From TPA_inf: Saccharomyces (Eukaryota), in the NCBI GenBank assembly GCA_000146045.2, contig BK006944.2, forward strand, positions 384,001-448,000: 64,000 nt of DNA, given 5' to 3'. Each line of letters begins with the position of its first letter. Position 1 is the first letter of the stretch. Made by a program: the position numbers and the translations under genes. The notes under the pieces were generated by a model. It had not been told where the DNA came from. It ran no database searches and saw only the letters and a program-made list of their open reading frames with translations. Below, piece by piece: positions 1,758-60,938 of the stretch.

Positions 1758-3206
1758 ATGGATAGACCTATAGATGATATTGTGAAAAATCTTTTAAAGT
1801 TCGTCGTTAGGGGGTTTTATGGTGGCTCCTTTGTACTGGTACTCGATGCTATACTATTTCACTCGGTCCTAGCTGAAGATGACTTGAAACAATTGTTGAG
1901 CATAAATAAGACGGAACTGGGGCCGCTAATTGCTAGACTAAGATCAGACAGGTTAATATCCATACACAAACAAAGAGAATACCCTCCAAACTCAAAAAGT
2001 GTGGAAAGAGTTTACTACTATGTAAAATATCCTCATGCTATTGACGCAATCAAATGGAAGGTCCATCAAGTCGTACAAAGATTGAAGGATGACTTGGACA
2101 AAAATTCAGAACCTAATGGTTACATGTGTCCGATTTGTTTGACCAAGTACACACAATTGGAAGCTGTACAATTATTGAATTTTGATAGGACAGAATTTTT
2201 ATGTTCCCTATGTGATGAACCGTTGGTGGAAGATGATTCTGGTAAAAAAAACAAAGAGAAGCAAGATAAATTAAATAGGTTAATGGACCAAATTCAGCCA
2301 ATCATTGATTCTTTGAAAAAGATTGATGATTCAAGAATTGAGGAGAATACTTTCGAAATTGCATTGGCTCGCTTGATACCACCTCAAAATCAATCACATG
2401 CAGCATACACGTACAATCCAAAGAAAGGCAGCACCATGTTCAGACCGGGAGATTCTGCTCCATTGCCAAATCTTATGGGTACTGCTCTTGGTAACGACAG
2501 TAGTAGACGTGCCGGTGCTAACTCTCAAGCCACATTACACATCAACATTACCACGGCAAGTGATGAAGTGGCTCAAAGGGAATTGCAAGAGAGACAGGCT
2601 GAAGAGAAAAGAAAACAAAACGCTGTCCCTGAATGGCATAAACAGAGTACCATCGGTAAAACTGCTCTTGGTAGACTGGATAATGAAGAGGAGTTCGATC
2701 CTGTAGTTACTGCATCTGCCATGGATTCTATAAATCCTGATAATGAACCTGCACAGGAAACATCCTATCAAAATAACAGAACTCTGACCGAGCAAGAAAT
2801 GGAAGAAAGAGAGAATGAAAAGACGTTGAATGATTACTACGCTGCTTTGGCTAAAAAGCAAGCAAAGCTCAATAAAGAAGAAGAGGAGGAGGAAGAAGAA
2901 GAAGAGGATGAGGAAGAAGAAGAGGAAGAAGAGATGGAAGATGTTATGGATGATAACGATGAAACTGCTAGAGAAAATGCATTGGAAGATGAATTTGAAG
3001 ACGTAACGGATACAGCTGGCACCGCAAAGACAGAATCAAACACCTCCAACGACGTAAAACAAGAATCGATTAATGATAAGACTGAAGACGCTGTAAATGC
3101 TACTGCCACTGCTTCAGGTCCGAGTGCAAACGCTAAACCAAATGATGGTGATGATGATGATGATGATGATGATGATGAGATGGACATTGAGTTTGAGGAC
3201 GTTTGA
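1758..3206 (+). CDS. TFA1: TFIIE large subunit (YKL028W), 482 aa
   Basis: ORF 482 aa starting MDRPIDDIVKNLLKFVVRGFYGG...; zinc ribbon CPICLTKY...CSLCDEP; acidic Glu/Asp-rich C-terminus; length matches Tfa1. Confidence 0.93.
   Translation: MDRPIDDIVKNLLKFVVRGFYGGSFVLVLDAILFHSVLAEDDLKQLLSINKTELGPLIARLRSDRLISIHKQREYPPNSKSVERVYYYVKYPHAIDAIKWKVHQVVQRLKDDLDKNSEPNGYMCPICLTKYTQLEAVQLLNFDRTEFLCSLCDEPLVEDDSGKKNKEKQDKLNRLMDQIQPIIDSLKKIDDSRIEENTFEIALARLIPPQNQSHAAYTYNPKKGSTMFRPGDSAPLPNLMGTALGNDSSRRAGANSQATLHINITTASDEVAQRELQERQAEEKRKQNAVPEWHKQSTIGKTALGRLDNEEEFDPVVTASAMDSINPDNEPAQETSYQNNRTLTEQEMEERENEKTLNDYYAALAKKQAKLNKEEEEEEEEEEDEEEEEEEEMEDVMDDNDETARENALEDEFEDVTDTAGTAKTESNTSNDVKQESINDKTEDAVNATATASGPSANAKPNDGDDDDDDDDDEMDIEFEDV
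2875..3176 (+). repeat. TFA1: Coding trinucleotide repeats in TFA1: GAA/GAG run (2875-2940, poly-Glu) and (GAT)9 (3150-3176, poly-Asp)
   Basis: Translate to EEEEEEEEEEDEEEEEEEEME and DGDDDDDDDDDE. Confidence 0.9.
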
Positions 3207-3561
3207 TATGGTCCGTTTTTTTTAAATCTTACCAACTAGCTCTTACAATGTAGAACCAACTTTTCCTTTCTTCATTTTCTTCTCTATTGTATCAAGCTTC
3301 TCTTAAAATCTAAAAAAAATGAGAGAAAAAAAAAAGAATACGTCTGGAAAAAATCACATGAAAAAATTTCAGAAAAAGAAAGCGGAGCTACTAGACATAT
3401 GGCATCTTTATAGTAATAATAAAAACATTACTAGTGAGAATATTGAGGTGTAAAAAATATTTTTTCGAGCATATTTAGTTTATATATATTTAATAAAGAA
3501 CCTCAACTTATAGAAGGCACAGAAGGATTGCTTTATCATTCAACCAAAGTACAAAAATAAT

Positions 3562-4905
3562 ATGGTAGAGAAGGATACATGGAAACTGATAACTGCCACT
3601 GCACTATTCACTGTGGCAGTGACGACGATTACAGATTATGCTTGGACCAGTTGGCAAGCACAAAAGCAAGTAATTGCGCAACAAAAAAATAAGAATAAAG
3701 GTGGGCAAACAAAATCTGACACGGATAAATATCATCAATATGATGAACAGTTTATTCGCCAATCTTTGAAAAACAATGTTGAATTTCTTGGTGAGGACAC
3801 AATTGAAAAACTATCCAATCAATATGTTGTTGTCGTGGGAGCAGGTGGAGTTGGATCTTGGGTGGTTAACTCTTTGGTGCGGTCCGGATGCCGAAAGATC
3901 AGGGTCGTTGATTTTGACCAGGTCTCACTAAGTTCACTAAATAGACACAGCTGTGCCATACTAAATGATGTTGGCACGCCAAAAGTGGAATGTCTACGAA
4001 GGCATATGCGGGAAATTGCACCATGGTGTGAGATTGATCCGATTAATGAATTATGGACGTTACAAAATGGCGAAAGACTGACCCTTGGTAATGGAACTCC
4101 TGACTTTATCGTGGACTGCATTGATAATATTGATACAAAGGTCGACTTACTTGAGTTTGCCTATAATCATGGTATCAAAGTGATCTCTTCCATGGGTGCT
4201 TCCGCGAAAAGTGATCCTACAAAACTTAATGTGGGGGACTTGGCTACCACGGAGGAGGATCCTCTTGCAAGGGTAGTGAGAAGGAAATTAAAGAAAAGAG
4301 GTATCTTATCCGGAATTCCTGTAGTATTTAGTGCCGAAAAACCAGATCCGAAGAAGGCTAAATTATTACCCTTACCAGATGAGGAATATGAAAGAGGAAA
4401 GGTCGACGAGCTGAGCGCCCTGAAGGACTTCCGTGTAAGAATCCTACCCGTTTTAGGTACTATGCCAAGTTTGTTTGGATTGACCATCACTACGTGGATT
4501 TTATCTAATATATCCGATAAACCTCTAGAACCTGTTGAGGGTAAGAATAGAATTAAGGTATACGATGGTATATATCAATCGTTGGCAGGTCAAATGAGCA
4601 GAGTCGGTATACCGAGCCAAAGAATCCCATTGGCTTTGAAGGATGTTAGTTACCTTGTCGAAGAGGTGTTTAAGGGTAAATCTCCAATTAGCGGCATTTC
4701 CACTAGACTAACTTTAACCAAATGGGATCCCTCTAAACCTATCTCTTTGCAAAATGTGGTAGTACTAACTAAAAACGAACAGAAAGTGCACGAAGACCGT
4801 GTCTTGAAGGGTAAGGAAAGCTTACAAGATGTTTATGATGCCAAAGTTCTAAAACTGGTTTCACAAAGATTCAGAGAAGAAGCTTATTACTCTCAATTCA
4901 GATGA
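3562..4905 (+). CDS. TCD2: tRNA threonylcarbamoyladenosine dehydratase, ThiF/MoeB family (YKL027W), 447 aa
   Basis: N-terminal hydrophobic anchor; Rossmann GAGGVGS motif of E1-like/ThiF proteins; position between TFA1 and GPX1. Confidence 0.85.
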   Translation: MVEKDTWKLITATALFTVAVTTITDYAWTSWQAQKQVIAQQKNKNKGGQTKSDTDKYHQYDEQFIRQSLKNNVEFLGEDTIEKLSNQYVVVVGAGGVGSWVVNSLVRSGCRKIRVVDFDQVSLSSLNRHSCAILNDVGTPKVECLRRHMREIAPWCEIDPINELWTLQNGERLTLGNGTPDFIVDCIDNIDTKVDLLEFAYNHGIKVISSMGASAKSDPTKLNVGDLATTEEDPLARVVRRKLKKRGILSGIPVVFSAEKPDPKKAKLLPLPDEEYERGKVDELSALKDFRVRILPVLGTMPSLFGLTITTWILSNISDKPLEPVEGKNRIKVYDGIYQSLAGQMSRVGIPSQRIPLALKDVSYLVEEVFKGKSPISGISTRLTLTKWDPSKPISLQNVVVLTKNEQKVHEDRVLKGKESLQDVYDAKVLKLVSQRFREEAYYSQFR

Positions 4906-5379
4906 TCTTGTTCCTTTCCAACATATAAAGCATTTTCTTCCATAGAGTTACGTACTATTCCAGGAGGCTTTTCGGACTCATACCATATAGAAAACTATTT
5001 TTATGCTTCTTCATTTACTTCTACTTGTTTATGTTTATTTGTAAAATTACATTATTTAATTTCTTGAAAGTAAAAAACTTGAATTTCTGAAATAAATAAA
5101 AACTAGAGAAAAATTAACGATGAGGCATGCGACGGAAATCAATATTGAAACTTCTCAAAGCTGAACCACTGAAAGGGTTCTTTAGGACAATTTTCATTCC
5201 CTTAATCAACAAAAAATGACTAAAACCTACATATTCTTCTTAGAAAAAATACATACGCAAAACAAGATAGAAGAGCAACTGTTGATACGATAGCAAGGGT
5301 GACAGAGACTATTCAATTATATGTCTTTTATTTTCATTCTTATCACCACTTTTCCGTTTTCAACTTCGTTGACCGCAAA

Positions 5380-5883
5380 TTAAATCTGTTCTTCTGGTGG
5401 TTGATTCAGTAATTCTTCGATTATTGGACAAAGCTCTAGTGGCCTAGTCATGCATGAAAACCTTTTAACCACCTTCCCATTTCGGTCTACCACAAACTTT
5501 TCAAAATTCCATTTTATCATTTTTATTCCAGACTTCCCGCTTACTGAATTCTTTAAGAACTTGTAGACGGGATCTTGCTTTTGCCCGTTGCAACGGATCT
5601 TATGTAGAATAGGGAAGGTTACACCATATTTATCTTGACAGAACTTATTAATCTCTTTATCCTTCTCGAACTCTTGATTTCCGAATTGACCACAGGGAAA
5701 GGCCACAATCACTAGACCATGTGATTTGTATTTTTCGTACAAGTACTCTAATTCCTTGTATTGAGGTGTGAACGCACAATGAGATGCTACATTGACTATC
5801 AAAACCACTTTGTTACGCAGGGAGTTGAAGGGGAATGGATTTCCGTTTTCATCTATTGGTGAAAAAGAATAAAATTCTTGCAT
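5380..5883 (-). CDS. GPX1: Glutathione peroxidase (YKL026C), 167 aa
   Basis: GPx family signature VNVASHCAFTPQY...LVIVAFPCGQFGNQE; 167 aa. Confidence 0.9.
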   Translation of the reverse strand: MQEFYSFSPIDENGNPFPFNSLRNKVVLIVNVASHCAFTPQYKELEYLYEKYKSHGLVIVAFPCGQFGNQEFEKDKEINKFCQDKYGVTFPILHKIRCNGQKQDPVYKFLKNSVSGKSGIKMIKWNFEKFVVDRNGKVVKRFSCMTRPLELCPIIEELLNQPPEEQI

Positions 5884-23464: not shown

Positions 23465-23989
23465 CTACATCACATTCAAATTGCCGAATCTGTCCTTGTA
23501 ACCAGGTACGTCCCATTTACCCTTCTTGACCATCTCTTCTACCTTAGCATCAATTTCAGGTTTGATCTTTGTCAGGTCGTCAACAGTTAATTCATCGAAA
23601 GGTCTTGCAGATTGAATATTATCTAAGGTGCTTTGCAAATCCTTTAACTCCTTGGAAACTAAGGATTCTGTCTCCTTGGCGTTGGTCATTGCGTGCTTTT
23701 CAAAAGACTCAATCACTTGTAATTGTTTGGAGGCATCGATTTTGACCGGCTTATATTGCTTAACGTATGATTCTATCTTGTCAATGACTGAAGTGTTTTT
23801 CAACACAGATCTATAATGACTGAAATCTACTTCGGTGGGTTGACTTTGCAGCTCTAGTAATTGTCTACGTGCCTCATCGTTTCTCTTTTTAAAACTCGAT
23901 AATTGAGTGGCAGTCGACCCTGTTATACGTAGAGAAGAGATGACTTTTGCCCAGTCAAGTTTGTTAGCAGCGGATTTGGCCAAAGACAT
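23465..23989 (-). CDS. ATP7: F1F0 ATP synthase subunit d (YKL016C), 174 aa
   Basis: 174 aa, MSLAKSAANKLDWAKV..., ATP synthase d family. Confidence 0.9.
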   Translation of the reverse strand: MSLAKSAANKLDWAKVISSLRITGSTATQLSSFKKRNDEARRQLLELQSQPTEVDFSHYRSVLKNTSVIDKIESYVKQYKPVKIDASKQLQVIESFEKHAMTNAKETESLVSKELKDLQSTLDNIQSARPFDELTVDDLTKIKPEIDAKVEEMVKKGKWDVPGYKDRFGNLNVM

Positions 23990-24248: not shown

Positions 24249-24300
24249 GTCACGTGGTCATCACGTGAGCATAATATATCACGTGATATACACCCATACC
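24249..24300. promoter_or_regulatory. Cluster of three Cbf1/CDEI octamers (RTCACRTG) plus a Rap1-like ACACCCATACC in the ATP7/PUT3 divergent promoter
   Basis: GTCACGTG 24249-56, ATCACGTG 24260-67, ATCACGTG 24278-85, then ACACCCATACC 24290-24300. Confidence 0.6.
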
Positions 24301-24543
24301 TCGTTTATGGGATTGAGTCATCGGATATGTCATTATAAACGATATTTCTCCGCGGCAATGAGGTGGCGAATATTGGAGTAAAAATGAAAACATCCACCAG
24401 GTGCTTGATGATATACTTGACTTCGGCGGCAATTTAAAGCTTTCTAAGCAGCAATTAGTAAGTAACCATTACAATAACGATAAATACGACACTGGTCCAA
24501 CTAACTCATTGATAGGATAATTGCAGTGATCTTAACGAGTTTA

Positions 24544-27483
24544 ATGGTGACCGACCAAGGCAGTAGGCATTCGATACAATCTAAGCAACCAGCCTACGTT
24601 AATAAACAACCGCAAAAAAGGCAGCAGAGATCTTCTGTCGCATGCCTTTCTTGTAGGAAACGTCATATAAAATGTCCTGGTGGTAACCCTTGCCAAAAAT
24701 GTGTTACGAGCAATGCCATATGTGAGTACTTGGAGCCGTCAAAAAAAATTGTTGTGTCGACAAAGTATCTGCAACAACTGCAAAAAGACTTGAATGATAA
24801 AACTGAAGAGAATAACCGCCTGAAAGCTTTGCTCTTGGAGAGACCAGTGAGTGTACGTGGTAAGGATAACAGCGATGATGACGAGAGGCATATAAACAAT
24901 GCACCCTCAAGTGACACATTGGAAGTATCCAGCGCTCCGGCGGCTCCTATATTTGACCTCATGTCCAATAGTAACACTGCGTCCGATAACGATAACGACG
25001 ATGACAACAGCAACAGAATCACAAATAATAGGAGCTATGATCATAGTTTGGAAAAATACTACAAAAAGGCCATCAGCATCTTTAAACAACCAGCTAATGC
25101 TAATGGCGAAAATGGCAACGGTGCCAATGGTCATGAGGATGATGATGAAGATGATGAAGAAATATCAACAAATTTTGCTCAAAGAAGTGGTAGGCTCATA
25201 GAATCTCACAATGGATTCCATTATTTTGTTGGATCTTCTTCAATGACATTATTTGGGTTAGAAATTCAATCTTTGGTTACAAAGTATATTTCGGTCAAGA
25301 ATTTTCGACCTTTGCCAATAAACACCAAAAACAAGATTTTAAATTCAAACCTGAACCCGGCTATAAGTTCTTTTATCAATTCAAACAACTATCTTTTCTC
25401 GTCCTATAATTTTTTGAACCCTATATCGACTATTGTCAACTTAAACTCAATCAACGATAATTTATCTCCATTGATGTTTAAGATAATTTTGAAAAGCGAT
25501 ACGGATGGTAGTAGTGGCCAGGAAGAGGTAATACAGTTTCAGTTGCCTTCGTATAATTACACAAAACTATTAATTGACTGCTTTATAAATTATAACGATG
25601 GTTGTTTTTACTTTTTCAACGAAGGCCTGGTTAAATGTGGCATTAACAAATTGTACTTGGAAAATAAATGGCTATACTATGATAATACCAAAAAAGCTTT
25701 GGACAATGAGAATGATCCAATTTTACAAGCTGTTTGGTTTTGCAAAATTTTGTTAATTTTAGCAGTAGGTGAAATGTATCTGGGTTCCATCAATAATGAA
25801 ATGTTGAAGAATTATTCTAATCAGCCAAAATTGCCCGGTTCAAAATTTTTTCAAATGGGTTCTAAAATTTTTAATTGTTTGTTCTCAAGTGAAAGATTAG
25901 AAAATGTGACTAAGAAAGGCGGTATTGAAGTCCTGTTGTTATACGCGTTCTTCTTACAGGTGGCTGATTACACTTTAGCCTCTTATTTTTACTTCGGTCA
26001 AGCCCTAAGGACGTGCTTAATTCTAGGCTTACATGTTGATTCTCAAAGCGACACTCTATCCAGGTATGAAATCGAGCATCATAGGAGACTTTGGTGGACA
26101 GTTTACATGTTTGAACGAATGCTTAGCTCAAAAGCTGGGTTACCATTAAGTTTCACTGATTATACAATCTCTACAGCACTGCCAGCGGATATTGATGATG
26201 AAACTATCGAAGAGAAAAATAGTCACTATGTTTTCAGAAAGGCAGAATTGATTTCTAACTGCGTTACTATTGTGAAAATCAATGCACAAATTTTGAGCAA
26301 ATTATATCAAAGGCAACCTGAGACAAACATCATAATTACTTTGAAAGTTGTCATCAAGCAGTTGTTGGAATGGAGGAACAATTTGTCCGATTCCTTACAG
26401 GTGGATTTTACGCAAAAGGATGAAGATTTCAAAATATCGAGATTGTCAACCAATATGTTTACGGAATATTTTCAAGGAATAAACTTGGCCGTGAGACCTT
26501 TATTATTTCATTTTGCATCCATTCAATTGAAAAGGTTCAAAACGAGCAATACTTTCGTCAACTTACAAAACTATTCTGCCACAATATCTTCCTTATTAAC
26601 ATGTTCTTTGCATGCTTCTGTGAATACTATTAGGTCTCTGTGGAGTTTATTACAGAATAGTATGCTTGCTATGTTTAGTTATATGGACAGAGAGTATCTT
26701 TTTACTTCTTCTTGTACTTTATTACTATTCAACACTGCTTTTGGTATTCATGAACAAACACTATATCATTTGGATCATTCTCTGGAAATTTTCACACAAA
26801 TGAGAAACTTAGGCAACATTCCAGCAGGCTTAAGAAGAGCACAATTATTAACATTAATGGCAAATTTGGATTTCCACGGCATAATGAATGACTTGATTAC
26901 TAAATATAACGATATTTTGAAATTTGATTCTATGAATTGTGAAAACGATAACATAGTAGAAGATAGCAATGAACCCAAAAGAGAAACCGAAAAGTGTAAA
27001 CCTCACAAAGATGGCGATCGCATTGACCCTTCAATTATAGACTGTGATAAATCAAACACCAATACAAATATGATCAAGAACGAATCTATATCGAACATTG
27101 TTAGCATACTTCCGGAAGGCGCGAAACCAACGCTGACTGATTATAGTAATGGTAATAATGATGTTAATGATATTAACGTCAATAACTCGGAACCTTCTAC
27201 TTTTTTTGATATCATAACTGCGAGCTTGGAAAATTCATACCAAACCACGCTAACTGAAAAGGGCTCTCAGGTGATGGAAAAAAACATGGATCAGTTGGAT
27301 TCCGTTCATAATCTAAATGATGACGATTTACAACAATTGTTGGAGGATTTAGGCAATATTGATCATTCCGATGAAAAACTTTGGAAGGAAATCACTGATC
27401 AAGCAATGTGGCTGGGAAATACTATGGATCCAACTGCAGCTGCTGGTAGTGAAATTGACTTTACTGATTATTTAGGACCATAA
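24544..27483 (+). CDS. PUT3: Proline-utilisation Zn2Cys6 transcription activator (YKL015W), 979 aa
   Basis: Zn2Cys6 cluster [21 protein letters not shown] followed by a coiled-coil dimerisation segment. The track ORF starts 6 codons upstream (24526); I place the start at [10 protein letters not shown]. Confidence 0.9.
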
Positions 27484-30600: not shown

Positions 30601-32913
30601 ATACTGGAAAAAAGATGAGCTCTTCATTGAAGAAATTAAAGAATTAGAGCTATTAGTTTTCTTTATGTTTTCTTCAAATGAGTCAAGTTTCAAGTATATA
30701 TTAACATCATGATCAGAGACCTCAGGAAAGACATTTTTAACAAGTTTATCTATGCCTATATGGTCTTCACCAATGAAAATCATGTTTCTAAGAAAAAGTA
30801 TAAGCCATTTAATTAAAAACTCTGGGTTTCCACTCTTGTCAACGTATTTCCATTGCTCTGAAAGGCACATTATGAAGGGAGAAATGTAGTTATACTCTTT
30901 TGCCATATCGACGTACTTGTATGGTGTTTTTACGACACGAGATATAGTTTCGTCAAACCACTTCCAGACTTGTTCCATGTTGTCAATTTCAGAAACTTGA
31001 AGGGAAAGCCCTTGAAGACTATTCACTAAAGCCATCACTGGTGAAATTAAAGATATGTTGAAGATAACGTTTGTTCTCGTCAGCTCATCGAGCAAGTTGG
31101 ATATTCTTGTAGTTATCACGTTAGAAGCATTTTTGGAGGATGCTAGCTTTAATAGTAGGGTGAATAAAGAATTTCCACCAGAACTTGGATTCCACCACCT
31201 GGTTTGAGTAGAGTTAAATTCTTGAAATTGTAAGTAGTTGTCCAGAATAGCAAATTCTATGCCAGAAATCTTGGATTTTTGCATGATATCTGTGTAAATA
31301 TTTGATGATGGTAGGTTAATTGAGAAGAGGTTGGGGAACATTTTACTATAGTAGTTGAATATGATGGATATGGACAGAGGTAAAATTCTATTATCCTTAT
31401 TGGAAGCCAAAGAATTGCTCAAAGTAGATACGAAGATTGGTAAATCAGGAATTCTAGTATGAAACTCGTTGAGTAAAATAGTTTTTTCATTTCTCCAGCC
31501 TTTTTGATCATAAAATGTGGAAACTTTTTCTAATTTTTTTAACGCTAGAACTATTGATTGACAGGCTAATTGTCTTATGATGGGTGTTTCAAATTGTAGG
31601 GATTTAACCAACGAGGATTTGGTGAGCAAAGATGGCAGAATGTTTTCTATAACTAATGAAGTGGCAGGTGGAATATTGCTATCAACTTTCTCCATAAATT
31701 GCGGTATCTTAAGATTAATAATCTTGTTAATCAGTAACGTTATACCAAACCAATACGAAGTCATCTTAGGGTCATAGTTACCATTCGTCGTTAAAAAGAT
31801 GCTGTAAGGAGCAACAAGTTCGGGAACGTTCTCCAATATTTTGATCAACGTACCTAATTGCAGCGTATCTTCCCAAGGTTTGAAAAGGCGTAAAGTGTTG
31901 AACAAAAGTTTATTATGAATTTGAAATTCCACTTGGTTGACGGTTATCGGAGCTCCATGAGAAGCTCCATCAGCAACTGAATTTTTGAACCAAACGCAAT
32001 TATCAGGAAATGCTACGCTAAAGTCACGGGAAGCTCCAAAAGTTAAGAAAAACTCATTTGCCTTCTTAACCAAATTCTTGTTTGATGAATAATAAAAGTG
32101 ATGAATCTTTGAAGCCGCTAGTTCATTTAAAATTTTGGTTTTAGTAGTTCTCTTGAAGGATTTCTCCTTTAAAATGTCGTTTATGAATACCGATAGTATG
32201 TGCTCAGATAACTTGTCAGAATCAGCCTTATTCATGAATTTAAATAGGTTGCTCATAATCTTAAAGTTTTCTGTCAAAAGTTCTTTTCTCACGAATGGGG
32301 AAGCATTTGAGATCAATGTCAACCAAAACTTGATAAATGTAAATCTTAATGAGTCATGTTTGGATGAATCAGCAGATGAATTCCCATTGGCTAACTCAGA
32401 CTTGCTTGGTACCAACAGTCTTGGTAAAATAGGTAATGAAAAATCGAAATATGAAACTAATTCCTCTATATGTTGCCCATTGTTGAAATTGACTATTTGT
32501 TTGAGTAGACGAAGAATTGGATTAGTTAATTGCGCACGCATATTGTTCAACCCTCTATAGAGAACTTTTGTGTAATCGGTCAATATCAATCTAATTAGAC
32601 CGCTCCCAATAGTCACTGTACTAGTATCAGATGACAAAACTCGTAAGGTTTTAGTCAGTAATGAGGTAGTTTTCGAGAATTTCCCATGGTTATTTACTTG
32701 AGCATAATATGACCAAGTCTGTACCAATTGAGCACCAAATCCTCTTTGGAAGAACACTATTAGAGGTTGGTAATCTTTGGAGAGAGTTTCATCTTCGACT
32801 GCACTGATTATACTTTCTAGTGTTTCTAATGTACCGTCTTCGAACTCTTTCCCTTGGGTGTACTTCTCCCTTCTCTGGTCGCGAGATCCATAGGCTTCGC
32901 TATGATTACTCAT
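27619..32913 (-). CDS. URB1: Nucleolar 90S/pre-60S biogenesis factor (YKL014C), 1764 aa
   Basis: 1764-aa ORF; size and position match URB1; PAC and RRPE motifs in its promoter. Confidence 0.88.
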   Translation of the reverse strand: MSNHSEAYGSRDQRREKYTQGKEFEDGTLETLESIISAVEDETLSKDYQPLIVFFQRGFGAQLVQTWSYYAQVNNHGKFSKTTSLLTKTLRVLSSDTSTVTIGSGLIRLILTDYTKVLYRGLNNMRAQLTNPILRLLKQIVNFNNGQHIEELVSYFDFSLPILPRLLVPSKSELANGNSSADSSKHDSLRFTFIKFWLTLISNASPFVRKELLTENFKIMSNLFKFMNKADSDKLSEHILSVFINDILKEKSFKRTTKTKILNELAASKIHHFYYSSNKNLVKKANEFFLTFGASRDFSVAFPDNCVWFKNSVADGASHGAPITVNQVEFQIHNKLLFNTLRLFKPWEDTLQLGTLIKILENVPELVAPYSIFLTTNGNYDPKMTSYWFGITLLINKIINLKIPQFMEKVDSNIPPATSLVIENILPSLLTKSSLVKSLQFETPIIRQLACQSIVLALKKLEKVSTFYDQKGWRNEKTILLNEFHTRIPDLPIFVSTLSNSLASNKDNRILPLSISIIFNYYSKMFPNLFSINLPSSNIYTDIMQKSKISGIEFAILDNYLQFQEFNSTQTRWWNPSSGGNSLFTLLLKLASSKNASNVITTRISNLLDELTRTNVIFNISLISPVMALVNSLQGLSLQVSEIDNMEQVWKWFDETISRVVKTPYKYVDMAKEYNYISPFIMCLSEQWKYVDKSGNPEFLIKWLILFLRNMIFIGEDHIGIDKLVKNVFPEVSDHDVNIYLKLDSFEENIKKTNSSNSLISSMKSSSFFQYISALPSKNLMNISRLPVNKLDAAGILFRVQLLVEDDSVVYDNWFEATACELTGKIASYMVTDTEFPIIKVLERYINFALPKLAIEKRNALLMKKSRFMCNLIGAVCFETGHQLVEFREIIQKVVFSGENVEEYANYNELYQKEDVNAFLTSVSEYLSTSALTSLLMCSTKLESTRNILQKLFNEGKTIKISLVKNILNKAANEDPASIKEVNISLAKFFEENKVCVDASSDPMGKLSLSETTSLINSFVSSDLNYLVLKAFYRWEHFSFPSFIPSIWRIKDSPLLSIVTTAALFKHMQDKDFSAFAHETISKYGNEIAKSTYTTSKSEIFDEILNMITTYIDFYDETKRNEILKCVLSQSDHKYHAATVRYIAAHNNFTYPGVETWLHKTLLYLTKYLSERKVISNSFFELLRAMAELLKLEEVPNKLNVKIINSQLEAILGSEWIKQIKVLEYVIVLIFCVSKKSIQSQRMVQLLLSNDSYSSIMIKDNDEDSSYRKFLSTMILFSLFSIDPVVNSTPIVQEKLLTFYSGTISSNDKLILKILETIESHTATSWTNMIFSWEFIKDEEEEILEAIGDTRLITKEREGLILTLQKNMIKKSIDRYVLERPQVPELYTDSNTNNYDATTRCDLVKKYYDDTERSGVDMYDPLFLLLLIIHNKELVKMVKDDEGNVTYRYEFENFLDCKIFQFIICSLSDCHTVANISYEHLSNLASSLEKKTAQMNLEKQITSKDNERKESDSDLIKYNSIYQVLIKRILYQRQQNQDPINPLIWFSISRIVDLLGSPTAPLHEKAYRWVLSNSTIRSWDIPMVSDVMMSYNKRQQDDNKKEIDMEIYYGELSWVLTTICKGIKTDEDYKMLEKKGVFEWLLNLINMPYLKERLRELIYFIFYKVQRVADDGGLNLISRNGIVSFFEVLNNNIKSRLPQDDILNNIGTLRNENRGTLNTTLRLAQEQNGIEKLLLGYNELVKSQKRLILWTEGDSDNVVKRLRK

Positions 32914-43294: not shown

Positions 43295-44551
43295 TCAAAT
43301 ATCCTTTTTCGTTGGAGTACTGTCAGTTGGAGTAGTGGAACTTTCATCACTTTCTTCGTCTGATTCACTATCACTTCTGTCATCCTTGAGAATACCTCTC
43401 CATAGAATCCTGTAAAGAACTCTAAAAATAAGGAACAGCCAATAAAGATTCACTAATTGCAAAGCGCCTATCAATACAAAGACAATTGGTAAGGAAATCC
43501 AACATTTATATTGCTGAGTGGCAAAATTCAAGACATAGTTACCTTCCGTGCGAAATTGCGTTAAAACGGACCATAGGATCTTTAAATTTATGTAATGACG
43601 CAAATAAATCCACGCAACAACAAAGATAGCAAAAGAAAAAAAAGCCAATCCAGAGTCCAAATAATTTAGAGTTTTGGAGAATGACAAAAGAAAATCAGAA
43701 ACATCCATTGTGATATAGATTGGCAGTCCCATTTTAGTGAAATGAAATACGTAGGAAGACCAAATCAATAGTAAAGTAACAATATGATGGAAAGTCAACT
43801 CGTTATGATCTTTTCTTGGCTTTTCTAGTTGCAATACAAGAATGCAGGCTTGTTGAGCCCAAAATGCAGCTTGACCCAAATAGAATACCTTGAATAAGAA
43901 GGGATTAGTGAAATCTGGATATGTTCTGTACATTGCCTTTGTGTTGAAAAACCATAAATCCGAATGGTACATACAATATATCCCGAAAGGACCGGAAACA
44001 CCGGTGTAGAAAATAGCGTACATTTGTTCCATGATTCTTTTTATTCTGTGCTTAGAAGTGACGTGTAACCTAATAGCGAACGGTCTAATGACAACATCCA
44101 TTAGGAATTCACGTAAGAATGTGAAAAAAATCATATAGTAAAATACAAAGCACAAATCGTTAATACCTTTACCATATGCGTTGGTATCACCTATTTGGTA
44201 TGACACAGCGACAAATCTATGTAACACATTTGTCTTTGTAGTGTTACCAGAAGTGAAATAGGCACTATATACCGCGATTAAAATCATCAAGGGAGCTATC
44301 CAGGCATGACGGTAACTTATCTCTCGGAATGAAAACCAGATTTTCTTGACCAGGTCGCTATCATTTTTGGTGGCTTCAGATAATCTCTGCATACGCCTTT
44401 TAGCAGCCGTTTTAGATTCTTTTGTCTCGAACATAGTACCTAAACTAGGTACAGTGTCCCCGAGGTCGATCTTACCTATGGAAGACTTGCGTCTTGGTCT
44501 TGACCTCACTTTCAAATTGTTGTTTGAAGGGCTTGGCTTTATTGTCGACAT
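43295..44551 (-). CDS. LAC1: Ceramide synthase component with TLC/Lag1 domain (YKL008C), 418 aa
   Basis: Multi-pass membrane protein; conserved Lag1 motif region with paired His ([16 protein letters not shown]); 418 aa. Confidence 0.9.
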
Positions 44552-45117: not shown

Positions 45118-45153
45118 ATCACGTGATAATCACTGCACGTGACTATCATGTGA
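45118..45153. promoter_or_regulatory. Cluster of three Cbf1/CDEI-type octamers in the LAC1/CAP1 divergent promoter
   Basis: ATCACGTG 45118-25 (+), CACGTGAC 45136-43 (GTCACGTG on -), ATCATGTG 45146-53 (ATCACATG on -). Confidence 0.55.
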
Positions 45154-45301
45154 TACGATAGCCGGGTTATGATCCCCTTTTTCTTCCTATTGGAATACTG
45201 ATTTTACAGTGGCTAGTACTGGATTTGAGTATAGGAAGGTGTTAGCAACTGTAAGGTACTATTCAGACCGTTAATCCAACGGATCATAAGAGCGACAGAA
45301 A

Positions 45302-46108
45302 ATGTCTAGTAGTAAATTCGAAGAGGTCATCAACAAGATCATCAATGACAGCCCTCCAGGAGAATTAAGGGAAGTATACGACGATCTAATCAAGATCACA
45401 AGTGAAAACTCCAAAAATACTATTTTGGATGCTATTGAGAATTACAACGTGCAGAATTGCATCCCTATAGAAGTCAACGGGAACTCTGTAATTATTTCCA
45501 AATACAACAAGGAAGGAGCAAAGTTTTTTGATCCCGTAAATTCCGTAATATTTTCAGTTAACCATTTAGAGCGCAAGGGCCTTGACATTGAACCATATGA
45601 GTTCACGCATGCAAAGATAGAGAAAGGGCAATTGAAAGAACTGCACGATAAATTGCACGAATATCTTCTTCAGAGCTTTCCAGGTGATGTCAGTTTTGCT
45701 GTTTACCCAGTCCCTGAGGAAATAAGTAAAATTTCTATTATTATTGTTAGCACCAAATATAATCCAAACAATTTCTGGAACGGCCATTGGAGATCAAGCT
45801 ACATCTACGATTTGGAGACCAGGGAGTTATCCGGTCAAATCTCTACGCAAGTCCACTATTACGAAGACGGTAACGTTAGTTTCCAATCTGGGAAGGATAT
45901 CAATCAATCTAACGTTGATGACGTTGTTTGCACAATAAGGGATATTGAGACGAATTTCGAAAATGATCTAGATCTTTCATTTTTCGACTTGAACGAAAAA
46001 CAGTTTAAGGCCTTAAGAAGAAGATTACCAGTCACGAGATCCAAAATTAACTGGGGTAGTGCGATTGGCAGTTATAGATTGGGTAAGAATGCGGCAGAAG
46101 GCAAATGA
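45302..46108 (+). CDS. CAP1: F-actin capping protein alpha subunit (YKL007W), 268 aa
   Basis: 268 aa, CapZ-alpha family. Confidence 0.9.
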   Translation: MSSSKFEEVINKIINDSPPGELREVYDDLIKITSENSKNTILDAIENYNVQNCIPIEVNGNSVIISKYNKEGAKFFDPVNSVIFSVNHLERKGLDIEPYEFTHAKIEKGQLKELHDKLHEYLLQSFPGDVSFAVYPVPEEISKISIIIVSTKYNPNNFWNGHWRSSYIYDLETRELSGQISTQVHYYEDGNVSFQSGKDINQSNVDDVVCTIRDIETNFENDLDLSFFDLNEKQFKALRRRLPVTRSKINWGSAIGSYRLGKNAAEGK

Positions 46109-53096: not shown

Positions 53097-53516
<420 letters not shown>

Positions 53517-53777: not shown

Positions 53778-54544
53778 ATGAGTTTGTTTGAGTGGGTATT
53801 TGGAAAGAATGTCACTCCGCAAGAGAGGTTAAAAAAAGTATGTTGTTCTGTATTTGGATCAGTTATTTTAGTGAACATACTAACGTTAATTATTTGAGTT
53901 TTTAGAATCAAAGGGCTTTAGAAAGGACTCAGAGGGAGCTTGAAAGAGAAAAGAGAAAATTGGAACTACAAGATAAAAAACTTGTATCAGAAATTAAAAA
54001 ATCGGCAAAGAATGGGCAAGTTGCAGCTGCGAAAGTTCAAGCAAAAGATTTAGTAAGAACCCGGAATTACATCCAAAAATTTGACAACATGAAAGCTCAA
54101 CTTCAGGCGATATCATTGAGAATACAGGCCGTTCGAAGTAGTGACCAAATGACACGTTCTATGAGCGAGGCCACTGGTCTTTTGGCTGGAATGAACAGAA
54201 CAATGAATCTACCTCAGTTGCAAAGGATATCGATGGAGTTTGAAAAGCAGAGTGATTTGATGGGTCAACGACAGGAATTCATGGACGAAGCTATTGATAA
54301 CGTCATGGGTGATGAGGTGGATGAAGACGAAGAAGCTGACGAAATTGTAAATAAAGTTCTTGATGAGATTGGAGTGGATTTGAATTCACAGTTGCAAAGC
54401 ACGCCTCAAAATCTGGTTTCTAATGCGCCGATCGCAGAAACAGCGATGGGGATTCCTGAACCTATTGGCGCCGGATCAGAATTTCACGGTAATCCTGACG
54501 ATGACTTGCAAGCTCGGTTGAACACTTTGAAGAAGCAGACTTGA
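53778..54544 (+). CDS. DID4: ESCRT-III subunit Vps2/CHMP2 (YKL002W), 232 aa, spliced: exon 1 is 53778..53837 (20 codons), exon 2 is 53906..54544
   Basis: Exon 1 MSLFEWVFGKNVTPQERLKK ends at GTATGT (53838-53843). TACTAAC at 53878-53884. 3' splice site TTTAG ends at 53905; exon 2 NQRALERTQRELEREKRKLELQDKK... The Snf7-family fold is only reconstituted after splicing. Confidence 0.92.
53838..53905 (+). other. DID4: DID4 intron (68 nt)
   Basis: GTATGT / TACTAAC / TAG; the join restores the reading frame (exon 2 is in frame with the 53960 track ORF). Confidence 0.9.
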
Positions 54545-54776
54545 GCGCTCTGAGTATATTTAATGAATAATAGGTCTATACTATAATACATCAACTACTG
54601 ATATCAAAGTAGGCACTTAGAATCAAAAGGCTTCCGAAAATTTGTTCAGTTTTTCACTTTACTCAATCTCGTCACTAAAGTTTTCTTTTTTTTTCGAATG
54701 AATCCTCGAATAAATATGTTCTATATTATATATATACATCTTTTATATATCATTAAATGTACAGTAATCGGTCAAA

Positions 54777-55385
54777 TTACAAATGCTTACGGATGATTTT
54801 TTCACTGATTAAGTACTCATAAATAATGGTAGCACATTCTTCAACCGTCTTCTGGTCGGTTCTCAAATGTAGCTCTGGAGCTTTTGGCGCTTCATATGGG
54901 GCAGAAATACCTGTAAACTCCTTGATTACACCCTCCCTAGCTTTCTTGTATAAACCCTTAGGGTCCCTTTGCTCAGCGACTTCTAATGGAACATCAACAA
55001 ATATTTCAATGAACTTCAAACCAGCCTCCTTATGTAGTTCACGAGCTCTATCTCTGTCAACTCTGTATGGAGAGATAAATGAGGTGATTGAAATAGCACA
55101 TGAATCAGCAAATAGCTTAGAAACTTCGCTAATTCTACGAATGTTTTCATTTCTGTCCTTTTCTGAGAAACCCAAATCCTTGTTCAATCCAAAACGAATG
55201 TTGTCACCATCCAATCTATATGCAGACAAGTTTTTTTGGAGCAGTAACTGTTCTAGCGCACAGGCGATTGTACTTTTACCTGACGCACTTAGACCTGTTA
55301 ACCAAATAGTACAACCGTCCTGTTTTCTCAATGCCTTGCGTTCGTCGTAAGTAAGATTTGGATGCCAAGTAATATTAGTAGCCAT
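54777..55385 (-). CDS. MET14: Adenylylsulfate (APS) kinase (YKL001C), 202 aa
   Basis: P-loop [16 protein letters not shown]. The track ORF has 11 extra codons; I place the start at [16 protein letters not shown] (55385). Confidence 0.92.
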
Positions 55386-55570
55386 TGGTGTACAGTGTGC
55401 TTGGAGAAATAATTCCAACTTTTCTTGATGTCAAGTTCGAACAAAGAGAGAAAATGAACGACATTAACGGATACGCAACTGATGTTGTATAGAAATTTTG
55501 CATCTTATATAGATATTTTGACAAATTCATGAAGTTGAAGTCATATTGAGTCGTTCATCCTCTTCTCCAT

Positions 55571-55613
55571 TGCCACATTTTTTGAGGTGGCTTGTAAATA
55601 TATTGATCACGTG
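55571..55613 (-). promoter_or_regulatory. MET14 promoter: Cbf1 site ATCACGTG (55606-55613) and Met31/Met32-like TGTGGC core (55571-55579, AATGTGGCA on the gene strand)
   Basis: Classic sulfur-regulon architecture (Cbf1-Met4-Met28 plus Met31/32), 185-230 bp upstream of the MET14 ATG. Confidence 0.6.
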
Positions 55614-56127
55614 AAATTAGTGGCACGGTCTTTTATTCCTGGAAAAGCGTGCAGCTATTTTTCGAGAATAATGTAAGGTACCGTGGGTGCCGTACCATCA
55701 CGCCGAAATGAAAGCAACTGTATTCTTTAATGTTACGCATTCTTGGTTGTTGGCTTATTTACATTTCTCGCGAGCTGGTGATGAGCCAAATGTCGTAGTG
55801 GAATGATTCTAGAAGTGCAGAGTTATCTGCTACATTGCCAAGGCGTCGTAACCGGGAGGGCTCACAAAGGCGCTTGCTCTAAACATGCATAGGGAAATTT
55901 GAAAATGATTGTTATGAGTAAACCTGTTAATGCTCCTTTAAACGTAATCTTATTTCACCAATTTTAAAAAAAGAAATTGGTAATTAACCTCACCTAACTT
56001 CTGTAATCACTTGTCAACGCTATTTACAATTTTGCTTTGATTTATACAGAGGAAGCAGTTTACTCTCCTTTCTATGTGTATTTGATTATTTTAATTACCA
56101 AGAAAACAAATTCTCGTAACATTCTTA

Positions 56128-56246
56128 TTTTATACGTTCGGAAATCATGAACATTTATTTTTATGATTATGTAATTAAAAAAATATAATAAATTTATTTT
56201 GAAAATTAATTTTTTTAAAATTTTAAATATGTTTTTATCATGTGAC
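56128..56246 (-). other. CEN11: Point centromere CEN11: CDEIII (plus 56128-56152), CDEII (56153-56238, 86 bp, more than 90% A+T), CDEI (plus 56239-56246)
   Basis: On the minus strand the element reads GTCACATG (CDEI, RTCACRTG), then an 86-bp A/T tract, then TGTTCATGATTTCCGAACGTATAAA (CDEIII with the invariant CCG). It lies between MET14 and VPS1 as expected for chromosome XI. Confidence 0.9.
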
Positions 56247-56607
56247 TTATGAAAATGATATTTACGGTTCAAGAGAAAGATAAATGCAGAATCAATCAAT
56301 ACAATGAATAGTACCTTATTTAGTATTGGACCATTGAGGTATTAGGTATTAGTAGAAATATCCTAAACACTAGTATTGACAAAAGAATAATATTATATGC
56401 TATCAATTATCATTCCCATCCTCATGTTGACCTTCTTCATATTGGACAAAAGATACTAGGATCGTAATGCGAGATAGGAAATTCTTCAAAAGCATAATTT
56501 ATAGACTAGCTTCCACGTATACAAGAACAATATATAAGATTTGCAGTAAATATTAGGGAGAAATACTCAAAACCAAGCTTGAGTCGACCGGTATAGATGA
56601 GGAAAAC

Positions 56608-58722
56608 CTAAACAGAGGAGACGATTTGACTAGCGTTTCTCAATATCTCGACCATCTTCTTACATTCTTTTCTTCTTTGAATGGTTATGTCGTTTTCTTT
56701 CGTTAATTCTTCAATATCTTGCTTTCCGTAAAGTTTTTCGAGTAAAACTTTCTGAATATCAGTTTTACTTTTCACAATCAATTTAAGCATCAAAGCCTTT
56801 GGTATAATATCGGCAATGGTTCTTTTGACAATAGAGAAATAACTACTAATCAACAACTTGATTACTTCTGTTTCCATTGTTTCCCTCTCTGTCATTTGGC
56901 CAGTAGCTTTTAAAACAGGAGGTGGGGATTCCAAAGCTGCCAATTTCTTCTTGTTTTTAGTGGAGAAGAACCCACCAAAAAATCCTGATTTCTCTTCCAT
57001 AACTGGCGCCTTACTAGACGATGGTTGGGTTGGTAATGGTTTACCCGTCTTTGGGTCAACAGCGACTTGGCGAGGATGTAATTTTTCTTCCACCATAACC
57101 ATTGCTTGAGAACCCTTCAAAAGGTCGGGATGGGCTGTATTGATGTAAGTTTGTTCAGCTTTGATGATATCGACAACAAACTCATTCGTAGGAATAGTAG
57201 CATCCTTTAAGAACTGAATGAACTGATTAGAAATCGCTTCTCTTAGAGCAGGATACCTTGAGTACTTTGGTTGTGAAATAATCTGTTTTAGCATACGAAC
57301 AAGTTCATCAAACACCAGAGTAACTAAACGTAGAGATGGTTCTTCAAATCTTCTAATTTGCTGTTTAACTAAAACTTCAAAAGCTTCGGTACCGACAAAC
57401 AAAGATGGGGCAGAACCTGAACTATTGTACATAATGGTTCTGATATCAGAATCTTTGATCTGGTCGAATGGATCCAAAGAGTCTACACCATTTTTGAAAG
57501 TTTCATGGAATACGTAAGAAATTCTAGCACCACCAGAAAGTTCCTGACTGGAAAGCTCCTTCGCCTCACCGTCCAAGATACCGGCATATTCATTGGAAAA
57601 ATCAGTAATCATGCTCAAAACAACCGAACTAGCTGAATCCATAGTTTCTGGGCCCAAGTTTATAAGTTCGTTTTGATATTTTTTCAATGTGGCTTCGATT
57701 TTCGCTTTGATTTCTGGCAGAGTTTGCCTAATGTGGTGTAATAAGATTGAGTTTAACTTTTTAGCCAAATATGGTGTACCACAGTAATGAGCTTTAGAAC
57801 TGTAAGAGGGATGGTTCTCAAAAAATTTTCTTTCGTTTTCAAGGGCTTCTCTGATTGTTTTTTTGTGTTCAATATCCTTTTGACCTCTATTGATAACTGG
57901 GATATAACCATATCTCAAAGGAATGACTCTTCCAGCCAAAATATCTATGACATCTGTACCTTGATCCATCAAATCGACTTTTGTCAAGACACCAATAGTT
58001 CTCGTTCCTTCTGGATCGACCTCTCTAGCCAGCTTCAAACCATCGCTGTTGGCTAAATCGGTGTTAGCGGCATTAACAGATAATATGATAGCGTTTGGTT
58101 TCGAAATATACTTTAACAACATGTCCTTAATTTGTCTTTCAATATCAGGAGGTTGGTCACCTACGGGAACCTTCGTCAACCCAGGCAAATCCACTAACGT
58201 CAAAGTAAGAACATGCGGAGAATAAATTCTCAAGTTAATGGGCACAGAAGAAATACCTGAATTGGCACCTGTCACTTTGTCAGTTTCTTTGACGATTTCC
58301 TTTCTAATTTCGTCAAAATTATAAAACTTCTTACCAGGTAAATGCAAAAATTCACCCCATTCCTCTTTATTGTCTTCAGATTGTCCCTCGTTCTGGTGCT
58401 TTCCTGATTCATCCTTTTTCTTGTCATCATCGTTGATGTTCAAGTCAATCAATTCATTAGCAGTTTGGTTTACTTTAGCATGTTCTGACTTTTTTGGTCT
58501 CCTATTAATCAATTGTAACACTAAAGGTCTCCTGGTGACAATACCAGTACCTCTTGGCAAGAAATCCCTACCAACAATGTTCTCCAAAACGGACGACTTT
58601 CCTGACGACTGGGAACCGACAACAGTGATCTGTGGTAAATCAATAGGAGATTGAGATCCTCCTCCTAAGGGCGCCAAAGCGTCCTGAAGCTTGTTAATAG
58701 TAGAAATTAAATGCTCATCCAT
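56608..58722 (-). CDS. VPS1: Dynamin-like GTPase for vacuolar sorting and peroxisome fission (YKR001C), 704 aa
   Basis: Dynamin G domain ([31 protein letters not shown]) and GED; 704 aa. Confidence 0.95.

Positions 58723-59213: not shown

Positions 59214-60938
<1,725 letters not shown>

Follow-up and report, generated by a model that had tools for sequence, protein, structure and literature searches.

[quoted passage not shown] An initial annotation had already called it CEN11, with a canonical tripartite structure.

Anatomy and position of the element

Read on the minus strand from 56246 to 56129, the sequence is GTCACATG / ATAAAAACATATTTAAAATTTTAAAAAAATTAATTTTCAAAATAAATTTATTATATTTTTTTAATTACATAATCATAAAAATAAA / TGTTCATGATTTCCGAACGTATAAA, giving an element of 118 bp (56129-56246) in which CDEI lies toward VPS1 and CDEIII toward the MET14 promoter. 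CDEI (8 bp; 56239-56246, minus strand), the site for a Cbf1 bHLH-zipper dimer, fits the consensus RTCACRTG and is part of an extended 14-bp motif, ATAAGTCACATGAT, at 56237-56250 on the same strand. CDEII (56154-56238, minus strand), which the literature describes as wrapping the single Cse4 (CENP-A) nucleosome, is 85 bp long, rich in A and T runs and 95.3% A+T (81 of 85 bases, four C's being the sole exceptions). These values fall within the range of approximately 78-87 bp and 76-98% A+T published for CDEII together with the CDEI consensus (PMC10810202). CDEIII (25 bp by convention; 56129-56153, minus strand), the site of the CBF3 complex, contains the (T/A)(T/A)CCGAA core with the flanking TGT..TG, and within it the 19-mer TGTTCATGATTTCCGAACG occupies 56135-56153, with the CCG at 56139-56141. 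Compared to the textbook 25-bp consensus, CDEIII differs at about 3 positions. Individual yeast centromeres commonly deviate from the CDEIII consensus, and a homopolymer-rich CDEII is a described property of point centromeres. The three parts follow each other in the order I-II-III on one strand, and this arrangement occurs a single time in the 64-kb window. The motifs, their order and their spacing therefore bear out the tripartite reading of the initial annotation, including a CDEIII with its CCG and a CDEII of more than 90% A+T. In contrast, its start at 56128 and its total length of 119 bp each counted one base too many, CDEII had been given as 86 bp instead of 85 bp, and the strand had been left unstated.

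An element built in this way would be expected to act in a series of steps. A Cbf1 dimer would bind CDEI, and the CBF3 complex (Ndc10, a Cep3 dimer, Ctf13 and Skp1) would bind CDEIII, with the Gal4-type zinc cluster of Cep3 on the essential CCG. CBF3 would direct the deposition of one Cse4 nucleosome, for which CDEII would supply approximately one turn of DNA, and CCAN and the outer kinetochore would assemble on the Cse4 particle, leading to attachment to a single spindle microtubule. The published description likewise places Cbf1 on CDEI, CBF3 on CDEIII through the Gal4-type domain of Cep3 and the essential CCG, and a Cse4 nucleosome on an element of about 120 bp, the point-centromere kinetochore attaching to one microtubule (PMC10381965). 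Any substitution at the second cytosine of CCGAA inactivates the centromere, whereas changes in CDEI or CDEII merely raise non-disjunction (PMC10810202). Another report describes the use of DNA fragments from around the chromosome XI centromere in place of the chromosome III centromere region (PMC2113365).

The element lies between YKL001C (MET14) and YKR001C (VPS1), at approximately 440 kb of a chromosome of approximately 666 kb, which is the position of CEN11; the gene names and their L/R convention are well established. On the left-arm flank, MET14 (54777-55385, minus strand) encodes an APS kinase of 202 aa, with 743 bp separating its ATG from CDEIII. On the right-arm flank, VPS1 (56608-58722, minus strand) encodes a dynamin-like GTPase of 704 aa, with 361 bp between its stop codon and CDEI. 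The next gene past VPS1 is PAP1 (59232-60938, plus strand; poly(A) polymerase, 568 aa), whose protein equals the chain in PDB entry 2O1P residue for residue up to the C-terminal tag of that construct; 1FA0 was also matched, both entries being yeast Pap1. The MRP17 protein (53097-53492, minus strand) is identical to the sequence publicly named for S. cerevisiae S288C. Among the matches listed, the exact MET14 protein was found at approximately 435-449 kb on S. cerevisiae assemblies of approximately 657-680 kb, and two public S. cerevisiae assemblies showed 2 differences from the window in 6,609 bases and were identical over the CEN11 element. Sister-species orthologues of the flanking genes bear chromosome-11 locus tags (SUVZ_11G, SKDZ_11G and SMKI_11G). 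Adding 384000 to 56129-56246 gives 440129-440246, presumably the coordinates of CEN11 in SGD. The MET14, VPS1 and PAP1 flanks, the position near 440 kb and the locus tags of the orthologues support the assignment to chromosome XI, which the initial annotation had drawn from the centromere. As an annotation anchor, CEN11 places the window around the centromere of S. cerevisiae chromosome XI and marks the boundary between the left arm (MET14) and the right arm (VPS1).

Motif statistics, Cbf1-type sites and the overlapping reading frame

We compared the window against 100 dinucleotide-preserving shuffles using the strict pattern TCACRTG-N70-95-TGTNNNTGNTTTCCGAA, which matched once in the 64 kb and in 0 of the 100 shuffles. 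When the scan was relaxed to tolerate a single mismatch in CDEI and any spacer with 80% A+T or more, it returned the CEN11 site alone. No other 85-mer of the 64 kb equals the CDEII interval in A+T content; the 41 85-mers that reach 90% A+T or more are all at CEN11, and the 99.9th percentile of the window is 86%. Within CDEII, 40 of the 85 bases belong to A or T runs of 4 or longer, compared to 22 ± 8 in composition-matched shuffles (P = 0.02). A tRNA scan of the window found none, and a full-text literature search for the CEN11 CDEIII string gave no match.

The CDEIII core TGATTTCCGAA has only one other copy in the window, at 5675-5685 (plus strand), with ATCACATG at 5718-5725 (minus strand). 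This pair was considered as a CEN-like site and rejected as a chance co-occurrence, since the relative strand and order are wrong, the gap between the motifs is 32 bp and the spacer is not A+T-rich.

The element could in principle be an A+T-rich intergenic stretch that contains CCGAA by chance and lies beside a Cbf1 site in the promoter of MET14 or of some other gene. Such sites are frequent here, RTCACRTG having 13 matches in the window compared to 6.2 expected, with enrichment in promoters. One cluster, at 24249-24287, holds three distinct sites within approximately 40 bp in the divergent spacer between an ATP7-like gene for ATP synthase subunit d (23465-23989, minus strand) and a PUT3-like gene for a Zn2Cys6 factor (24526-27483, plus strand). 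A second, at 45118-45154, holds three distinct sites, again within approximately 40 bp, between a LAC1-like gene for a TLC-domain ceramide synthase (43295-44551, minus strand) and a CAP1-like actin-capping alpha gene (45302-46108, plus strand). That CDEI belongs to the motif class of two Cbf1 promoter arrays, as the initial annotation had it, is correct, but each array comes down to three distinct sites because one palindrome had been counted on both strands. MET14 also has a Cbf1-type site, ATCACGTG, at 55606-55613, 221-228 bp upstream of its ATG. This is, however, a CACGTG site separate from CDEI, approximately 520 bp from the centromere and independently conserved, with CACGTGAT at the equivalent place in six of six other Saccharomyces species and CACGTG in Zygosaccharomyces rouxii. 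Moreover, the full tripartite arrangement was absent from all shuffles, and a published Cse4 ChIP-seq profile, as presented in Fig. 6 of its report, has a tight peak at CEN11, which excludes a promoter site as the explanation (PMC2656530). On this evidence we regard a promoter origin of the element as extremely improbable.

The extreme A+T content, in DNA that follows the VPS1 stop codon by 361 bp on the same strand, might equally be taken for a replication origin (ARS) or for the 3′-end/polyadenylation region of VPS1. The 64-kb scan for the ARS consensus WTTTAYRTTTW gave no 11/11 match near the centromere, which argues against an origin; the sole 11/11 match in the window lies at 32334-32344 (minus strand), compared to 3.5 matches expected by chance in the 64 kb. 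Nor does an origin or a terminator predict an invariant CDEI and CDEIII at fixed spacing across species, the pattern described below, and this explanation has, in our judgment, hardly any chance of being correct.

The least probable alternative is that the 75-codon ORF listed mechanically at 56072-56299 (minus strand) is a real small protein overlapping the centromere: although a frame stays open across 118 bp in just 6.5% of composition-matched shuffles (any frame; in CEN11, one of six is open), the ORF needs a TTG start that exists only under bacterial table 11, its first Met is codon 60 and leaves 16 codons, it matches no Pfam family, and its supposedly coding CDEII has 1-bp indels among strains and, in the comparison of S. 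cerevisiae with S. paradoxus, shows no detectable conservation of sequence. The initial annotation was right that this ORF is listed and spurious, a judgment that follows from the TTG start, the late Met and the lack of a family match. Its suggestion that the centromere explains the open frame did not hold, since A+T-rich DNA is normally rich in stops and few shuffles remain open; the centromere is a reason to dismiss the ORF, not its explanation. For an annotator, the CEN11 call means that the ORF predicted across the centromere should be dropped.

The ORF list was made with the bacterial code, and several yeast genes in it have false TTG or GTG starts (54777-55418, minus strand; 53960-54544, plus strand; 24526-27483, plus strand). 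MET14 is listed 11 codons too long, as 54777-55418. Intron-containing genes are truncated, as in the case of a DID4-like gene of the Snf7 family (53960-54544, plus strand), which is listed as a 194-aa TTG ORF, whereas public assemblies give it 232 aa and an intron.

Conservation within and between species

To examine variation within the species, the window was aligned with nine S. cerevisiae chromosome XI assemblies (10 sequences). CDEI, the whole 14-bp ATAAGTCACATGAT and the full 25-bp CDEIII were invariant, while every substitution or 1-bp indel inside CEN11 fell in CDEII, which was still A+T-rich. The tripartite pattern was present at the syntenic place in nine of the ten listed contigs with an exact MET14, the tenth (CP016816.2) carrying a MET14 cassette only.

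That tenth sequence (543,379 bp) is an observation in its own right. Its exact MET14 copy lies in a 1,127-bp cassette, at 2696-3822 of the region extracted from it (L006), that is 99.6% identical to window positions 54565-55690 and includes the promoter, without the centromere. The genome is 19-24% G+C, and the neighbours of the cassette are the bacterial ClpB, SpoU methylase and Ham1. This has the appearance of a yeast marker retained in an engineered, minimal mycoplasma genome, CP016816.2 probably being JCVI-syn3A.

Orthologous VPS1-MET14 spacers from other species were retrieved via MRP17. S. paradoxus, S. mikatae, S. kudriavzevii, S. arboricola, S. uvarum and S. eubayanus all have a tripartite centromere in this spacer, consisting of a CDEI-like octamer (GTCACATG, ATCACATG or, in S. 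eubayanus, TTCACATG), 83-88 bp of 84-92% A+T and then TG..TCCGAA. The strict CDEIII pattern TGTNNNTGNTTTCCGAA had no match in these six sister species, whose CDEIIIs diverge where the element is less conserved; all six centromeres were recovered once the search was loosened and anchored on CCGAA and TCACRTG. The S. eubayanus octamer (CP049008.1, 3270-3277 of the extracted region, L016) has T at position 1 in place of the consensus purine and is otherwise typical. In Z. rouxii (JAKETS010000004.1, 5496-6328 of the extracted region, L017), the 833-bp VPS1-MET14 spacer contains no CCGAA, in-register CDEI or A+T-rich block. The gene order PAP1-VPS1-MET14-DID4-MRP17 is kept there, although the centromere is absent from this spacer.

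The alignment of the seven Saccharomyces species contains only two invariant blocks, TCACATGA and TG..G...TCCGAA, and CDEI, CDEIII and their 103-108-bp register are conserved throughout. CDEII varies from 83 to 88 bp and from 84 to 95% A+T in these species. A comparison of S. cerevisiae with S. paradoxus gives CDEII an identity of 62%, which is what shuffled sequences give; for the spacers on either side, identity is 69-71% and the null is 52-54%. With identity at the null level and with length and A+T content kept, CDEII is constrained in length and composition and not in sequence, and we infer that it acts through its length and its A+T/homopolymer character rather than through its exact sequence. 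This pattern of constraint is consistent with the fast evolution of yeast centromeres (PMC3155921). The retention of CDEI and CDEIII at a fixed distance, with the sequence between them free to change, fits a centromere and not a promoter. Thus all three alternatives were rejected, by the pattern statistics, by the absence of a nearby ARS consensus match and, above all, by the conservation across species.

The CDEI of CEN11 has the non-palindromic CACATG form (TCACATGA), which is invariant at this centromere in the seven Saccharomyces species, while the promoter sites of the window are almost all CACGTG. One might speculate that selection has favoured the CACATG form because Cbf1 binds it in a particular way, perhaps more weakly or asymmetrically, and that its invariance is more than tolerance of either base. 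We consider this doubtful, given that the data come from one centromere in seven related species and that shared ancestry with purifying selection on a functional CDEI explains the CACATG form equally well.

Together, these results indicate that the element is almost certainly CEN11, the point centromere that genetics has defined on S. cerevisiae chromosome XI, and that the sequence is like that of S288C or close to it. The identification is supported, at the level of sequence, by four grounds: the anatomy of the element, its position, the pattern of polymorphism within the species and the orthologous centromeres in seven other yeasts. No sequence evidence contradicted it. Its probable identity to the reference CEN11 rests on synteny, on near-identical public assemblies and on the presumed SGD coordinates. 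CEN11 was reportedly first isolated by function, and sequenced, by Fitzgerald-Hayes, Clarke and Carbon in 1982. The biology of CEN11 is among the best studied for any DNA element of a eukaryote; this centromere was described decades ago and is already known, and nothing new about centromeres is learned from finding it here.

CEN11 compared with other centromeres and with promoter Cbf1 sites

Compared to CEN11 of the reference strain S288C, the element has the same locus, the same tripartite structure and the same length of 118 bp, and no difference was detected in these features. CEN3, the model point centromere of structural studies, with its sequence taken from PMC10381965, shares with CEN11 an identical CDEI, including the whole 14-bp ATAAGTCACATGAT, and the CDEIII core TGATTTCCGAA. 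The initial annotation had described the CDEI as a GTCACATG variant, which overstated the case, since the octamer conforms to the published consensus (PMC10810202) and is the very one found in CEN3. The two CDEIIs are close in length and composition (84 bp and 93% A+T in CEN3 compared to 85 bp and 95% in CEN11), but they are unrelated in sequence, and the two centromeres, which lie on different chromosomes, are approximately 66-69% identical overall. The longest run that they share in register is the 11-bp TGATTTCCGAA, and a 14-mer, TTTATTATATTTTT, is shared out of register; the published values are an identity of 66% and a longest common run of 11 bp (PMC10810202).

Promoter Cbf1 sites such as that of MET14 belong to the same RTCACRTG octamer class as the CDEI of CEN11. 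They differ from it in that, in this window, they are mostly palindromic CACGTG and have neither an adjacent A+T block nor a CDEIII. Cbf1 binds RTCACRTG both in promoters and at CDEI, and the promoter sites act in transcription and not in segregation.

In Kluyveromyces lactis (CR382122.1, approximately 5030-5228 of the extracted region, L018), the VPS1-MET14 spacer contains ATCACGTG, followed after 165 bp of 91.5% A+T by TTTGTTTCCGAAAATTAAAA. The same CDEI-CDEII-CDEIII logic thus occupies the same spacer as in CEN11 and is oriented the same way with respect to VPS1 and MET14, with a CDEI of the CACGTG form and, at 165 bp, a CDEII about twice as long as that of CEN11.
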